Source: Candidatus Latescibacterota bacterium (GTDB taxonomy: Bacteria > Latescibacterota > UBA2968). From it: a stretch of 64,000 nt of DNA. The DNA lies in NCBI GenBank assembly GCA_965208125.1, contig OZ242320.1, positions 640,001-704,000 on the forward strand, written 5' to 3'. Of the stretch, positions 416 to 6,842 are shown piece after piece; the stretch's first letter is position 1; each line of letters starts with the position of its first letter. Both the position numbers and the translations under genes were made by a program. The notes under the pieces were generated by a model. That model was not told the origin of the DNA. It did not search any database and saw nothing but the letters and a program-made list of their open reading frames with translations.

Positions 416-532
416 AGAAGAAAATAATGGGAACCACAAAACACCCGAAACGTCTCCACAATGTAGATAAACCAAACCCCAAAATCAAGCGCAAACCCCG
501 TGACATTTTGCACGCGATTTAGTATATTACAG

Positions 533-615
533 CGGTGAGAGGTAAGCGGTAAGAGGTAAGATGACCGCCCTACCCCTCTCACGTCTCACTTCTCACCGCC
601 TCTTAACGTCTCACC
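533..615. repeat. Degenerate heptamer tandem repeats in two inverted blocks
   Basis: ggtgaga ggtaagc ggtaaga ggtaaga then tctcacg tctcact tctcacc ... tcttaac gtctcac. Confidence 0.6.
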
Positions 616-630
616 TTATGGAGGAACACC

Positions 631-1941
631 ATGAAACATTTGCAAATGCGTATTTTCTCTCTCGCCCTATTTCTGTGCTTATGCACAACAGCTTTTGCCC
701 AACCTGGAGTGGGTGAAAAAGTAGGTGAATTTCAACTCCAGGCCACCGATGGCAGGTTTTACGGCGTCAATCATTCGAACAACACGGTATCCGTCCTCTT
801 TTTTGTCGGCTACAACTGAGGGACTTGCATAGGGGCGGGTCCCGCCTTTGAACAAAATATCCACCAGCGCAACAAAGACAAAACCGGCGTACAGATCCTC
901 ACACTGGACAGATATGACGGCAACCGCGCACAGGCAACATCCTATCTGACACAATCCAGCGTCACAACACCGCTGCTCACAAGTGCCTCTGGCGTCTCCA
1001 GGAACCTCGGCACCCGAAACGAAGATATCCTCGTCGTTGACCAGGAAGGCATCTTGCGCCTCAGGACCACTGCAATCGCCAGTGGCTCTCATGATCTGAT
1101 CAACGCACAAATCGACGCTCTTCTCAACAAAACGCCCGTTATCACCCTGTTCCCGCGAGAGCTTTACTTCGGCACAACCCTTGAAGTGGGGCAATCCAAA
1201 ACTATAGAATTTAAGATCGAAAATACTGGTGCAGGTCCCCTCGAAATCACCGGATACACGGCTCCTACAGGCATCACAATGGAGCCATCCTCACTGACCA
1301 TAGCCCCCGGCGAAAGCAAAACCGTACAAATCACCCTGACACCAACACAGGCCGGGACATTCTCGGGTAAAATCACCCTAAAACACGGCGAACAAAGTGT
1401 TGGCACCCTGGAAATCCCCTTTGCCAACCTCACCATCGAAGCGCCCCAACTCCCGGTCATTTCACTGGTTCAGGAAAATTTGAGCCTGGATGAAATCGAA
1501 GTGGGTAAAGACTTCACAACAACATTCGCCATCACAAATACTGGTACAGGTCCGCTCACCATCACAGACATCCAATCCAACATCGCGGGCATTGCATTTT
1601 CAGAAACCCAATTAACAGTGCCACCCGGCCAATCTCAGAATATCACAGTGACTTTCAATCCGCCAGCCGAAGGTCCCATCACCGGCACCATCGACATAAT
1701 CTCAGACGACCCGGAAAAAGCCTCAATCAGCCTGACCATCACCGGCTCGGCCATCTTCATCCCCGCTGATCCACGCACCGACTTCGACGGTTCGCGCACC
1801 ATTGACTTCTCGGACTTCCTCTTGTTCGTAAGTGCCTTTGGCACGGCCAATACGACCTTCGATCTCGACGGATCCGGCACTGTTGACTTCCCCGATTTTC
1901 TCATCTTTGTCGCAAACTTTGGGAAAACAATCAATTCCTGA
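631..1941 (+). CDS. Probable secreted selenoprotein: signal peptide, AhpC/TSA thioredoxin fold with UxxC, two Ig-like (ASH-type) domains, dockerin-like Ca-binding tail
   Basis: ORFs 631-819 and 1054-1941 share a frame and only TGA 817-819 separates them; read-through gives VLFFVGYN-U-GTC-IGAGPAFEQ...ILVVDQEGILR; RBS GGAGGA; C-terminal DFDGSRTIDFSDF / DLDGSGTVDFPDF. Confidence 0.85.
831..849 (+). promoter_or_regulatory. Candidate SECIS hairpin
   Basis: AGGGGCGG-GTC-CCGCCTTT stem-loop starting 11 nt after the UGA, with G at the start of the loop. Confidence 0.55.
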
Positions 1942-2720: not shown

Positions 2721-4535
2721 ATGAAACGCCCTCTCGTCATCGCACTCTTTCTCGCCCTCCCACTTCGCCTCTGGGCAAATCCCCTCCAAACAGGTGCTGA
2801 AGAGGTTCCATTCAGTATCGGCGACACCCTCAATGATTTCGCCCTTGCCGACCTCAATGGCTCGCCCGTTACCCTCAGTGATTTATCTCAGAACCGCGCA
2901 CTCGTCATCATCTTCAGTTCCGTCGTCTGCCCTGCCTCGCTGAAATACGACATACACCGCACACAACTTCACGAACAATATGCCCCCAAAGGCGTACACT
3001 TGATCTCTGTAAATGCCAACTTTAACGAAACGGACAGAGACATCAAAGAACACTACGCCCAGAACCCCGTACCCTTCGATGTCCTGCGCGACCCGCACAA
3101 TAAACTCGCCGATCACCTCGGCGCGACCCACACCCCCCATGCCTTTCTCTTTGACGCCCAGCGCCGCCTGCGCTACAAGGGCGAAATCGACAACGGCTGG
3201 GGCATCCCCGAAGACACGACCTCGCGCGGTTTATGGGATGCCCTCGATGCACTGCTCGCCAACCGCGAAATTGTCAACACCAACCTGCCCAGTTTTGGCT
3301 GTGAAATCAGACGCATGCCCCGGCCAACAACTGTCGCGAACACCTCTATCCCAACATTTTATCGCGACATCCTGCCCCTGCTCCAAAACCGCTGTCAGAA
3401 CTGTCATCGCCCCGGCGGCATCGGGCGCGTACCCTTTTTCGACTACACAGAAGTACTCGCCTGGGCCTATCAGATGCGCGACTCCATCGAAGCCCGCATC
3501 ATGCCGCCCTGGAAAGCACGCCCCGAATACGGCGACTTCAAAAATTCCCGCAGACTCACAAATACCGAAATTCACACCTTCGCGCAATGGGTCAACAACG
3601 GCATGCCAGAGGGCAATCCCTCCAACCAACCCCAACCCATTGCATTTTCCAAAAGCTGGACCCTGGGCACACCCGACCTGACCCTCGAACCCGAAGCACC
3701 CTATCCACTCGAAGCTGTAGGGCGCGATGAATACCGCTGCTTTGTCTTGCCCACAAAACAGGACACGAGCAACTACGTATCGGCCATTGAAGTCCTGCCC
3801 GGAGAACGCGAAGTCGTCCACCACGTCAGCGTGTACATCGACATCTCTGGCAAAGCGAGCCTGCAACAGGAAAATTCGCCCTCGCCGGGATACCCATGCT
3901 TTGGCGGCATTGGCGTGCCCATCTACGAATCTCTGGGCGGTTGGGCACCCGGCAACACCCCCTTTGTCCTTCCAGATGGCACGGGCCGCGATTTACCGCC
4001 CAACAGCGACATCATCCTTCAGATCCACTATCACAAAATTGGTCGCGCCGTAAAAGATCATTCTCGACTGGGCATCTACTTTGCCAAAAAACCCGTACAA
4101 AAACAGCTCAGAGAAGAAGTCATCAACAGCCGCTTGCTCTTCATTCCACCCAACATCAAACGACACAGAGTAACCGGAGCACTCACCATCACCCGCGACC
4201 AGCACCTGCTCGGCATCTTGCCCCACATGCACCTGCTCGGCACAGAAATGAAAATAACCGCAACCTATCCCGACGGCACGCAACAACCCTTAATATGGGT
4301 CAAACCCTGGGACTTTAACTGGCAAGAAACCTACGTGTACAAAATACCCATCGCACTCCCGCGCGGCACACGCATCGCGCTCGAAGCCTTTTACGACAAC
4401 TCTGCCGACAATCCCCGAAATCCCAACAATCCCCCCAGGCTGGTGCGCTGGGGCGAAAAATCAACCGACGAAATGTGTACTGCATTTCTCTATGTCACGC
4501 ACGATGATGAAAACTTAACAACAGGTAAGAGGTGA
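2721..4535 (+). CDS. Secreted redoxin + cytochrome c + copper type II (PHM/DBH-like) monooxygenase fusion
   Basis: Signal peptide; redoxin (VVCPAS, GATHTPHAFLFD, YKGEID, FGCEI); heme motif CQNCH; Cu ligands VVHH, QIHYH, PHMH, DEMC. Confidence 0.85.
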   Translation: MKRPLVIALFLALPLRLWANPLQTGAEEVPFSIGDTLNDFALADLNGSPVTLSDLSQNRALVIIFSSVVCPASLKYDIHRTQLHEQYAPKGVHLISVNANFNETDRDIKEHYAQNPVPFDVLRDPHNKLADHLGATHTPHAFLFDAQRRLRYKGEIDNGWGIPEDTTSRGLWDALDALLANREIVNTNLPSFGCEIRRMPRPTTVANTSIPTFYRDILPLLQNRCQNCHRPGGIGRVPFFDYTEVLAWAYQMRDSIEARIMPPWKARPEYGDFKNSRRLTNTEIHTFAQWVNNGMPEGNPSNQPQPIAFSKSWTLGTPDLTLEPEAPYPLEAVGRDEYRCFVLPTKQDTSNYVSAIEVLPGEREVVHHVSVYIDISGKASLQQENSPSPGYPCFGGIGVPIYESLGGWAPGNTPFVLPDGTGRDLPPNSDIILQIHYHKIGRAVKDHSRLGIYFAKKPVQKQLREEVINSRLLFIPPNIKRHRVTGALTITRDQHLLGILPHMHLLGTEMKITATYPDGTQQPLIWVKPWDFNWQETYVYKIPIALPRGTRIALEAFYDNSADNPRNPNNPPRLVRWGEKSTDEMCTAFLYVTHDDENLTTGKR

Positions 4536-4536
4536 C

Positions 4537-6132
4537 ATGAAAAAACTCCTCAAACTCAGCATCCTCATCACCCTGATCCACGCGCCCATCCACGCCCAAT
4601 GGAATATCGCCGTATTGCCACATGAAAACACATTGGGCGACCCGCAGTGGAATTGGCTCTCCGCAGCCATTGTCGAAGGATATATCAACGCCTATTACCA
4701 TGTGCCCAAAATACATGCTGTTGACGAAGAATATCTGCGCCACAAACTCGGAGACACGCCAGTAAGCTCCTCTGACCTTGCACAAAAATTGAACATCCAC
4801 CTGATTTTAAGTGGGCGTTACGACATTGTGGGGTCCCGCATCCAAATCGAAACCGACATGCTTCAGGCAACCACAGGCGAAGTCATCGAAACCTTTGCGG
4901 GTCAGGCATCCATCTCTACTCCGCTCGACGCCATATTGCCCGTACTCTACGCCATTGCAAATCAGTTAAACGTGACCCTGACACCCCATGAAAAAACCCG
5001 CCTGCAAATCCCCATGTTTCACGATCCACAAGCTCTTCACATCGCAACCGAAAGCATGGTGGCACTGTATCGGGCGCTGCGACAATCTCCCATTGACGAC
5101 GCTCTGCTTACACAGGCTGAAGGCGGTCTAAAACGCGCCGTACAACACGATGTCAAAAGTGCGATGCCCCACTACTATCTCGGCCGCATACACGAAACGC
5201 GCAACAAAATAACAGAAGCGGAAAACGCCTATCGCAACGCCCTCAAAATCGACTTTGAACACGTTGCCGCGCGCTATCGCCTTGCCCTGATCCTCAAAAA
5301 ACGCGGACACACAGAAGAAGCCATGAGCGAACTCGAACAGGCCATCCAGCAGTCGCCCTTAAACCCCGATATTCAGACAGCCCTATCCAGCATGTTTTTT
5401 AATCAATACGCCCAAACCTTTGAAACCATCACCACCCAACTGCGCCAGGCCATCCAGGCCAACCCAAATGATCCCATTGCCTGTTATGAACTCGCCAATG
5501 CTTATAACGAACTCGACCGCATCGACGAAGCCACAAATTATTACCATCAAGCCCTACAACGCGATTCCACACTCGCCGATGCACATTTCAAACTCGGCCT
5601 CATTGCACACCGCAAAGGGGAACACGAAAAAGCCATTGACCACCTTCAAAAAGCCGCAGCGCACAACACCCAATTCACCCGCGTCCATTTCCGCCTCGGC
5701 ACCATCTTCCACCTTATCGAGCACTACGACGCGGCAATCAAAGCCTTTTCAAAAGCTATCGAAGTCGAACCCAATTACGTCATCCCGCGCTATCACCTCG
5801 GCCTGAGCTATCTCGCAAACGCGCAGCCAGACAGCGCTTATGAAGCCTTCCAGAAATACGCCGAACTCACCTCAGACGACCACCGCCCGTATTTCCAAAT
5901 GGCCGAGATCGCCCGGCAAAAAGGCGAACATGAACGCGCAATAGACGGGTATATACGCGCAATCGCCATCAGCCCTGTTCACGTACCCTCACACCTCCGC
6001 CTGGGCTATCTCCATGCCGAACAACAACGCTTTGACCTCGCTGTCCAGCAATTGCAAACTGTACTGCGCCTACAACCCGATCACCCGGAGGCCGAGAAAA
6101 TCCTCGCCGACATCCAGAAATGGACACCATGA
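4537..6132 (+). CDS. Exported TPR protein with N-terminal TolB_N/CsgG-like domain
   Basis: Signal peptide, IAVLPHEN...WNWLS, many TPR units; ATGA overlap with next gene. Confidence 0.85.
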   Translation: MKKLLKLSILITLIHAPIHAQWNIAVLPHENTLGDPQWNWLSAAIVEGYINAYYHVPKIHAVDEEYLRHKLGDTPVSSSDLAQKLNIHLILSGRYDIVGSRIQIETDMLQATTGEVIETFAGQASISTPLDAILPVLYAIANQLNVTLTPHEKTRLQIPMFHDPQALHIATESMVALYRALRQSPIDDALLTQAEGGLKRAVQHDVKSAMPHYYLGRIHETRNKITEAENAYRNALKIDFEHVAARYRLALILKKRGHTEEAMSELEQAIQQSPLNPDIQTALSSMFFNQYAQTFETITTQLRQAIQANPNDPIACYELANAYNELDRIDEATNYYHQALQRDSTLADAHFKLGLIAHRKGEHEKAIDHLQKAAAHNTQFTRVHFRLGTIFHLIEHYDAAIKAFSKAIEVEPNYVIPRYHLGLSYLANAQPDSAYEAFQKYAELTSDDHRPYFQMAEIARQKGEHERAIDGYIRAIAISPVHVPSHLRLGYLHAEQQRFDLAVQQLQTVLRLQPDHPEAEKILADIQKWTP

Positions 6133-6842
6133 ACCTGCTCAAAAAATGTGGTGCCGAATTTATCGGCGCATTTGCCATCGTCTTTGGCGGATGTGGTGCC
6201 GTCGCCATCAACCAGCTATCCGAAGGCGCCATCACCCATGTGGGCATTGCAACATCCTTTGGCCTCATCGTCATGACAATGGTTTACGCCACCGGGCACA
6301 TCTCGGGCGCGCACTTCAATCCCGCCGTCACCACCGCCTTTGCCTGCACCCGTCACTTTCCCAAACGCGAAATCCTGCCCTACATCGCAGCCCAATGCCT
6401 CGGAGCCATCGCCGCCAGCGGCATTCACCTGTGGTCTCTTACGCCCATCTTAAAATCAAAACACCCACAGCAGACCCTCAACCTGGGTGTCACACAACCG
6501 ATGGACAATCTTTTTACCACAGCTTTTATCTGGGAATTCTTACTCACCTTCTTCTTAATGCTCGTCATCATGGCCGTTGCCACAGACTATCGCGCCACGG
6601 GTCAAGCCGCCGGCCTGGCCATCGGCGGCACCATCTGGTTTGAAGCTATGTTTGCCGGTCCGCTATGCGGAGCCTCCATGAATCCAGCGCGCAGCCTTGG
6701 CCCCGCTCTGGCCGCTGGTGATTGGACCCATTTTCCCGCTTACGTATTCGGCCCCATTCTCGGCGCAACTGCAGGCGCGTTTTTTTACGAATTCATCCGC
6801 TGCCATTCCGAACCCGGCACCGATGTCAAAGGTTGTTGTTAA
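6129..6842 (+). CDS. MIP-family channel, probably arsenite-conducting (AqpS-like)
   Basis: SGAHFNPAVT and GASMNPARS motifs; C-terminal C...GCC; adjacent to arsC. Confidence 0.9.
   Translation: MNLLKKCGAEFIGAFAIVFGGCGAVAINQLSEGAITHVGIATSFGLIVMTMVYATGHISGAHFNPAVTTAFACTRHFPKREILPYIAAQCLGAIAASGIHLWSLTPILKSKHPQQTLNLGVTQPMDNLFTTAFIWEFLLTFFLMLVIMAVATDYRATGQAAGLAIGGTIWFEAMFAGPLCGASMNPARSLGPALAAGDWTHFPAYVFGPILGATAGAFFYEFIRCHSEPGTDVKGCC

Follow-up and report, generated by a model that had tools for sequence, protein, structure and literature searches.

A gene interrupted by a single in-frame TGA

Near the beginning of a 64,000-nucleotide stretch of the genome of a Candidatus Latescibacterota bacterium (hereafter 'the window'), the plus strand holds a reading frame that runs from an ATG at 631 to a TGA at 1939-1941 and is interrupted solely by another TGA, at 817-819. 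A standard listing of open reading frames (ORFs) breaks this region into an ORF of 62 residues (631..819) and one of 295 residues (1054..1941). When TGA is translated as selenocysteine (Sec, U), the frame gives a protein of 436 residues whose sole internal U, residue 63, stands in VLFFVGYN-U-G-T-C (flanking residues FFVGYN-U-GTCIGAGPAFEQ). A preliminary description of this DNA had proposed that one codon is all that separates two halves of a hidden, secreted selenoprotein, and the frame translation agrees. From the comparisons reported below, 631-1941 is very probably one gene, encoding a 436-residue selenoprotein that has so far escaped annotation. The ATG at 631 lines up with the start of the orthologues from the same genus. 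The features of the gene are collected in Table 1.

The preliminary description had also expected annotation pipelines to report fragments, and this is what the databases contain: the 24 entries found for relatives all start 3' of the TGA, are 321-322 or 295 residues long, and carry the name 'choice-of-anchor D domain-containing protein'.

Table 1. Features of the putative selenoprotein gene and its flanks, in window coordinates
Feature	Position	Strand	Basis
Sigma-70-like promoter match GTGACA-17-TATATT	500..528	+	10/12 consensus positions; consensus match only
Shine-Dalgarno-like GGAGG, 6 nt 5' of the ATG	620..624	+	direct sequence reading
Whole coding sequence, putative Sec at residue 63	631..1941	+	reading frame, orthologue alignment, dN/dS on both sides
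Predicted Sec-type signal peptide, residues 1-23, ...TTAFA|QP	631..699	+	basic n-region, hydrophobic core, AxA site
Thioredoxin-fold domain, TlpA/ResA/DsbE-like, residues 27-168	709..1134	+	Pfam, PDB sequence search, Foldseek
UGA predicted to be decoded as selenocysteine (U63), first position of U-G-T-C	817..819	+	column conservation, Cys/TGA homologues
Resolving cysteine C66	826..828	+	invariant column, alignment A1
SECIS-like hairpin, 9-bp stem	830..850	+	5' arm 830-838, loop G839-U840-C841, 3' arm 842-850
Ig-like domain 1, residues 175-264	1153..1422	+	Pfam Cep192_D4, fn3_5, DUF1573, HYDIN-type Ig, ASH; all-beta in model
Ig-like domain 2, residues 275-375, choice-of-anchor D / DUF1573	1453..1755	+	NCBIfam and Pfam
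Dockerin-like tail, residues 380-432	1768..1926	+	EF-hand_1 match, predicted fold
Ca-loop-like 12-residue repeat 1, D384-D395	1780-1815	+	D-x-D-x-S-x-x-x-D-x-x-D
Ca-loop-like 12-residue repeat 2, D411-D422	1861-1896	+	D-x-D-x-S-x-x-x-D-x-x-D
GC-rich hairpin, 5 nt 3' of the stop codon	1947..1967	.	terminator scan: terminator-like on minus strand only, since the plus strand has no T-run

Conservation of the TGA column

The N-terminal 170 residues, used as a query against the organism's own genome and 40 relatives, matched 39 of these 41 genomes. Each of 20 genomes of the same genus has an orthologue, 63-92% identical, with exactly one TGA within the match. In all of the 30 loci that we extracted from 30 related genomes (37-92% identity), a TGA aligns to U63 and lies in the conserved motif G-[YHWF]-N-U-x-T-C. 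Among 20 more distant loci of the same phylum, the 16 that bear a TGA all have it at the U63 column, and the four that are free of stops have TGT or TGC there. The position of the TGA was checked for these 46 loci only (30 + 16). The family is widespread in the phylum: an even sample of 151 genomes contains a family match (E <= 1e-10) in 78, often in several copies. The 113 match rows of this sample comprise 107 with one TGA, four with none, one with a TAA, and one with two TGA and a TAA.

As the TGA recurs at the same column across independent assemblies, a sequencing error is excluded. A Logan contig of run X1 also covers positions 482-840 with no differences. Logan contigs from three RNA libraries match parts of the gene at 85-99% identity, although these libraries may hold DNA and the matches do not prove transcription; one of the contigs (X9, record 21) spans 729-935 across the TGA, which is no proof of the codon in that strain.

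Selection acts on both sides of the codon. We took the ratio of mean nonsynonymous to mean synonymous divergence (dN/dS, Nei-Gojobori) for the window gene compared pairwise with the 20 same-genus orthologues, and obtained 0.16 over codons 1-62, 0.23 over codons 64-170, again 0.23 in the immunoglobulin (Ig)-like domains and 0.19 in the tail. Purifying selection therefore acts on both 'fragments', and in one and the same frame.

Homologues with cysteine complete this picture. Among 1.84 billion representative proteins, searched exhaustively with HMMER, 264 match at E <= 1e-3, and the full-length ones have Cys at the U63 column, as in FLGYNCAPC or FFGYNCPYC. P0031 (440 residues) and P0051 (435 residues), both from this set, are Cys twins of the window protein and are made up, like it, of signal peptide, head (here with CxxC), two Ig-like domains and tail. 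In a 43-row alignment of the family (A1), column 63 is Cys or TGA in 42 rows and Trp in none, with Cys in 28 of the 29 database homologues; C66 is invariant, and column 63 and P114 are each at least 90% conserved.

Maximum-likelihood analysis of 66 head domains places the Sec clade that holds the window protein (23 rows) as sister to a six-row Cys clade, with support 100/96; two genomes of the same family contribute paralogues to this Cys clade. The tree requires five changes of the Sec/Cys label, and at least three of these are forced by well-supported branches. Selenoprotein families typically show such repeated exchange between Sec and Cys. In genomes G119 and G122 (loci L055, L056 and L073), from the same family, the architecture is present in a Sec and in a Cys version, and these are natural pairs of Sec/Cys paralogues.

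Selenocysteine machinery

The organism's own genome (5.75 Mb in one contig) contains selA, selB, selD and a tRNA-Sec gene, all above curated cut-offs. The genes selA (577.8 bits) and selB (396.2 bits) are neighbours of each other; selD (364.8 bits; G000:C1:1005361-1006482, minus strand) itself has one in-frame TGA, in the context ...SCGG-U-ASKLDP..., and adjoins the tRNA-Sec gene (Rfam 70.1 bits; anticodon TCA according to ARAGORN). In the 151-genome sample, selA is above cut-off in 77 of the 78 genomes that bear the family, the sole exception being 91% complete and in 430 contigs, and in 39 of the 73 genomes without the family. Since related genomes are not independent, we regard this co-occurrence as a consistency check and not as a statistic. 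The comparative and genomic hallmarks of Sec decoding are thus present at this locus and in its genome. Of the findings that the preliminary description had named as refuting it, each was checked with an outcome in its favour: the Sec machinery exists, column 63 is Cys or TGA in 42 of 43 rows of A1, and the TGA recurs in other assemblies.

A SECIS-like hairpin downstream of the UGA

The bacterial selenocysteine insertion sequence (SECIS) is a stem-loop immediately 3' of the UGA whose apical loop, about 20 nucleotides downstream, contains G/U; in the element of Escherichia coli fdhF, loop nucleotides G23 and U24 contact SelB. The preliminary description had noticed a hairpin shortly after the TGA of the window gene. 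Such a hairpin is indeed there, beginning 10 nucleotides past the TGA, with an energy of -10.7 kcal/mol and a GUC loop at nucleotides 23-25 counted from the U of UGA; we take it to resemble the fdhF element. Other UGA hairpins of the same genome have comparable loops, GGU at nucleotides 24-26 in selD and GGUC at nucleotides 22-25 in one paralogue of the window gene. The window gene has GGUC at nucleotides 22-25 as well, with the first G paired in the minimum-energy fold.

We compared the hairpins of 16 representatives of the Sec subfamilies with those of synonymous recodings. In 10 of the 16, a hairpin with its loop at nucleotides 18-27 is matched by at most 5 of 150 recodings, and in 12 of the 16 by at most 11 of 150. 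Synonymous variability among 21 orthologues is also very low in this stretch, the 11-codon windows that start at codons 66, 67 and 65 ranking second, third and sixth lowest of 419. In a codon-anchored alignment of 27 sequences (A3), stem registers vary between subfamilies (i+j = 42, 44 or 48), and a hairpin built from different sequences and registers argues for structural constraint. A role of the 830-850 hairpin as SECIS element is plausible but has only moderate statistical support, and it is the weakest link of the Sec case.

The thioredoxin-fold head

The N-terminal domain matches the Pfam families AhpC-TSA (PF00578) and Redoxin (PF08534). The AhpC-TSA match covers residues 27-143 and scores 27.1 bits for the domain alone and 24.3 bits for the whole protein, against a cut-off of 26; the Redoxin score is 20 bits. 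The best solved relative by sequence is 2ls5_A (E = 9.4e-5). An AlphaFold model built on alignment A1 (mean pLDDT 89.6) places U63 between a strand at 53-59 and a helix at 64-81, the classic CxxC position of the thioredoxin fold, and so bears out the earlier remark that the TGA falls at the end of a beta-strand, at the first position of a CxxC motif. P114 is the conserved proline at the position of the cis-Pro loop that faces the active site. In Foldseek searches of the PDB, the head aligns with 2ls5, a putative protein disulfide isomerase (TMt 0.79, root mean square deviation 2.4), and with 3gl3_C, a putative DsbE (TMt 0.81), and 33 of the 43 members of A1 match the NCBIfam ResA model at E <= 1e-3.

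The preliminary description had cited AhpC/TSA-like selenoproteins with UxxC as the known kind. The UxxC thioredoxin fold stands, and the kinship has to be moved to TlpA, ResA and DsbE. In peroxiredoxins of the AhpC/TSA type, the peroxidatic Cys lies in a PxxxT/SxxC motif. We rejected a true peroxiredoxin, since the active site FFVGYNUGTC has the UxxC motif and not the peroxidatic one; the AhpC-TSA score is marginal. The head is a TlpA/ResA/DsbE-like domain, which most likely acts as a thiol-disulfide oxidoreductase through a selenenylsulfide intermediate.

The Ig-like stalk and the dockerin-like tail

The two Ig-like domains that follow the head are recognized by curated models: choice_anch_D (NF012200) scores 98.5 bits against a cut-off of 45, in two stretches, and DUF1573 (PF07610) 92.4 bits against a cut-off of 26.1. 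In Foldseek searches of the PDB, the stalk retrieves Ig domains of the ASH/HYDIN/CEP192 type.

The tail reaches 31.2 bits with EF-hand_1, against a cut-off of 25.4. Its last 64 residues, modelled separately, give a pLDDT of 93.2 and two loop-helix repeats, with helices at 21-29 and 48-56. When this model is compared with the PDB, dockerins occupy every one of ranks 1 to 10, with 2y3n_B in first place (E = 8.9e-5, TMq 0.78, TMt 0.82). The predicted structure thus folds like a dockerin, and we describe the tail as a dockerin-like Ca-binding module on the strength of that model. The Ig-like stalk of the preliminary description is therefore upheld by curated scores, while its dockerin-like tail holds by predicted fold and not by Pfam and NCBIfam cut-offs.

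A profile of the tail matches 83 reading frames of the same genome (E <= 1e-3), either at the C-terminus or just past an N-terminal leader, which argues that the tail is a general sorting or anchoring module of the lineage. Examples of these matches lie at C1:4611851-4612009 and C1:2650203-2650370. Cohesin (PF00963) has five matches in the genome. Eighty-three dockerin-like frames, beside five cohesins, suggest that this Latescibacterota genome has a large sorting system of the dockerin-like kind. Among the members of A1, 13 of 43 have a type IX secretion system (T9SS) type A sorting domain in place of the dockerin-like tail and 14 of 43 have a dockerin_GC-like tail; this family of thioredoxins has thus been joined repeatedly to cell-surface sorting signals.

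The best cohesin match is in an ORF of 1606 residues (G000:C1:2266947-2271764, plus strand; locus L134:948-5765), where the cohesin domain, at residues 1378-1497, is followed directly by a FlgD_ig/Por_Secre_tail T9SS sorting domain. The next ORF, of 2154 residues, likewise ends in a T9SS sorting domain, and both ORFs are candidate surface scaffolds. A complex prediction for the tail (A2) with one cohesin domain of the same genome (L130) gave 'no answer', with a score of 0.06, and speaks neither for nor against binding.

Paralogues and gene neighbourhood

The genome contains two further members of the family, both larger. One, of about 1690 residues (G000:C1:857359-862443, minus strand; locus L133), has a signal peptide, a GYG-U-PTC head, a stalk of choice-of-anchor-D Ig repeats, about 15 in number and almost identical to one another, and a dockerin-like tail as in the window protein, with one in-frame TGA at the same column. 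The other, of 1118 residues (G000:C1:4826807-4830160, plus strand; locus L132:8-3361), has a GYS-U-PSC head (AhpC-TSA 45 bits), an internal module resembling dockerins, seven LRR_8 stretches and, in its C-terminal region, the zincin-like motif HEIGH. About 2 kb downstream of this second paralogue lies a match to cohesin (C1:4832224-4832499). Orthologues of the window gene in other genomes have one, two or three Ig domains.

The order tetratricopeptide repeat (TPR) gene, Sec gene, ORF233, redoxin-Cu-monooxygenase-like gene, TPR gene is kept in all five same-genus genomes that we examined and is not found in one genome of the neighbouring family; the conserved order may only reflect relatedness. 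The redoxin-monooxygenase gene of this series (2721-4535, plus strand), syntenic with the Sec gene in the same five genomes, encodes a 604-residue exported protein in which a Cys-type redoxin domain (AhpC-TSA 50.5 bits) is fused to a fold that resembles copper type II ascorbate-dependent monooxygenases, with both of its domains. Further along, at 6120-6842 (plus strand), an aquaporin/MIP-family gene (181 bits) overlaps by 13 nucleotides the end of a 531-residue TPR gene. No cytochrome-c maturation genes were seen among the neighbours of the Sec gene.

Sigma-70-like consensus matches such as the one upstream of the gene number six in the region, where 1.6 are expected. Between this promoter-like site and the ribosome-binding site, at 532-599 (plus strand), lies an imperfect inverted repeat of 25 nucleotides, 80% complementary, with an 18-nucleotide spacer, which occurs nowhere else in the genome. 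This stretch varies between strains, since contigs from four runs break off or depart from the sequence at about 529-540 and 596-613.

Alternative readings of the TGA

Could the TGA be a genuine stop? The region would then be a pseudogene, or a gene for a 62-residue peptide followed by an Ig-dockerin gene with an internal start. The start of all 24 database entries downstream of the TGA would fit this, as would an internal TTG at 1054. However, the internal starts fall inside the thioredoxin fold of the model and would halve it, purifying selection is felt alike in codons 1-62 and 64-170, the TGA sits at the catalytic column in all 46 inspected relatives, and the Cys homologues are full length. 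Nor would one stop persist at one column of a pseudogene across families that are merely 27-48% identical. We hold a genuine stop to be extremely unlikely. That an assembly or sequencing error made the TGA out of TGC or TGT is a negligible prospect: nothing was found in its favour, the same codon is present in independent assemblies of 45 other genomes, and the X1 contig agrees with it.

Read-through without selenocysteine, through a near-cognate Trp or Cys tRNA or a lineage-specific reassignment of TGA, would equally keep the frame open, and the SECIS evidence is only moderate. It is nevertheless very unlikely. The column is Cys in homologues and never Trp, the family occurs together with selA in 77 of 78 genomes, and the Sec system is complete, down to a selD that contains Sec itself; as TGA also terminates the window gene and several orthologues, it is not reassigned. 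Alternatively, the UGA might be a selenium-dependent switch, at which translation mostly terminates to give a short exported peptide and the full enzyme is made only when selenium is plentiful. Sec insertion in bacteria competes with RF2 and is often inefficient, and both sides of the TGA are represented in the RNA-library contigs, though these are unable to show translation. On the other hand, the 62-residue product would amount to a signal peptide and some 39 residues of an incomplete fold, and the 373 codons downstream of the TGA are under selection just as strong as those upstream of it. We give such a switch very little credence; it would differ from decoding of the UGA as Sec in degree and not in kind.

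Several observations weigh against the reading of 631-1941 as an exported selenoprotein with a dockerin-like anchor. One distant row of A1 (P0081) has Ala at the Sec column. Most of the objections concern the hairpin: the 76-nucleotide fold has a z-score of -1.19 against dinucleotide shuffles, 22 of 200 of which are equally stable, and an equally stable hairpin with its loop at nucleotides 18-27 arises in 33 of 1000 synonymous recodings. For four of the 16 Sec-subfamily representatives (L041, L047, L059 and L072), 35-48 of 150 recodings equal the hairpin in stability, so that it does not stand out from expectation. Nor do the four Cys forms, with counts of 20, 97, 8 and 6 of 150, provide a clean negative control, and the G-A-G-P codons are self-complementary by nature. 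The stem registers differ between subfamilies, which precludes a column-wise count of covariation. A permissive Rfam scan of 500-2100 returned chance-level matches only and no SECIS family.

Other objections bear on the domains and on the fate of the protein. The ResA model NF002854 scores 13.9 bits on the head, against a cut-off of 170, which makes the window protein a superfamily relative and no ResA equivalog, and none of NCBIfam's curated models for selenoproteins scores above its cut-off there. The OS_HP2 (NF041425) and TUGYCR redoxin (NF053656) models have sub-threshold matches or none in the genome. The tail remains below the dockerin cut-offs (Dockerin_1 15.4 bits against 22.9, dockerin_GC 24.3 against 29). 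Finally, a Sec-exported protein would need a route across the outer membrane and a means of re-reduction outside the cytoplasm; one gene for a DsbD-type membrane reductase (DsbD_TM) is present elsewhere in the genome.

Proposed mode of action

With selenocysteine decoding as the preferred reading of the UGA, the gene would work as follows. SelB and Sec-tRNA(Sec) would decode UGA-63 as selenocysteine, SelB being recruited by the hairpin 10 nucleotides downstream. The N-terminal signal peptide would direct export via the Sec translocon; in the structure model, this region has a helix at 2-15 with a pLDDT of about 64, and its assignment as an export signal follows from sequence features. The U63/C66 pair of the head would carry out selenenylsulfide-based thiol-disulfide exchange, with the two choice-of-anchor D Ig domains serving as a putative spacer. 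The tail would probably dock the enzyme, in a Ca-dependent manner, onto cohesin-bearing proteins of the envelope. The comparisons and the family and fold searches above show the hallmarks of a selenoprotein and the identities of the domains; actual selenium incorporation, export, substrate, the direction of electron flow and docking are inferences.

Relation to known systems

Thioredoxin-fold selenoproteins with a UxxC motif have been catalogued since 2005, first for the Sargasso Sea (PMC1088965). The kinds listed include Prx-like thiol:disulfide oxidoreductases, thiol-disulfide isomerase-like (TlpA-like) proteins and Redoxin family proteins (PMC1088965, PMC13188914), and the UxxC families so listed are single-domain redox proteins (PMC13188914 Table 1, PMC1088965). 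The window family shares with them a Sec at the first Cys of CxxC in a TlpA/Prx-like fold, the existence of Sec/Cys pairs and a hairpin 3' of the UGA. It is set apart, to judge by the descriptions, by the fusion of its head to 1-15 Ig domains and a dockerin-like tail, or to leucine-rich repeat (LRR) and zincin-like modules. The catalytic idea, a UxxC selenoprotein with a thioredoxin fold, is thus already known, and the fusion to surface-display modules is new.

ResA, TlpA and DsbE (CcmG) have in common with the window protein a predicted export, the thioredoxin fold and a CxxC-type pair at the N-terminus of helix 1. However, the window protein has Sec and no membrane anchor, with Ig and dockerin modules instead. 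Cellulosome dockerins (types I and II) and the GC-type dockerin are likewise tandem duplications of about 55 residues in which a Ca-loop is followed by a helix, whereas the tail of the window protein sits on a redox enzyme, has sub-cut-off scores, and belongs to a genome with many more such modules than cohesin matches. A 'DUF1573 domain-containing protein, UGC' is listed in Table 1 of PMC13188914. The OS_HP2/DUF1573 selenoproteins (NF041425) resemble the window protein in an Ig-like domain (283-373, 60 bits against a cut-off of 100), but the Ig domains of the window protein have no TGA. We rejected membership in OS_HP2 in view of the sub-cut-off score and of the position of the Sec in the thioredoxin head.

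The preliminary description did not recognize this architecture as described before. Our search, which covered openly accessible literature, found no published description of a fusion with an Ig stalk and a dockerin-like tail, or of the multi-domain giants. The Sec fusion may therefore be unreported, although the architecture as such is not unique, since P0031 and P0051 share it with Cys.

Implications for selenoproteins in Latescibacterota

In every relative found, the family is recorded as truncated 'choice-of-anchor D' proteins, with the consequence that a whole family of selenoproteins, carried by 78 of 151 sampled genomes, is invisible in current Latescibacterota annotations. For annotation, the family offers a simple rule: a signal peptide followed by G-[YHFW]-[NSG]-TGA-x-x-C. 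The Sec and Cys twins of identical architecture also constitute a natural experiment on the choice between the two residues.

To our knowledge, the selenoproteins known from bacteria are almost all single-domain enzymes of the cytoplasm. An exported Sec head on Ig stalks of variable length, with an anchor, suggests selenium redox chemistry in or beyond the cell envelope. It is conceivable, though we consider it rather doubtful, that the lineage possesses an extracytoplasmic 'redox display', in which 1, 2, 3 or about 15 Ig domains keep Sec heads at defined distances from the envelope, some heads being fused to LRR and zincin-like modules, and in which dockerin-like tails bind cohesin proteins anchored at the surface by T9SS. 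If this is true, these would be the first selenoenzymes on a bacterial cell surface, acting on disulfides or oxidants of a host or of the environment.

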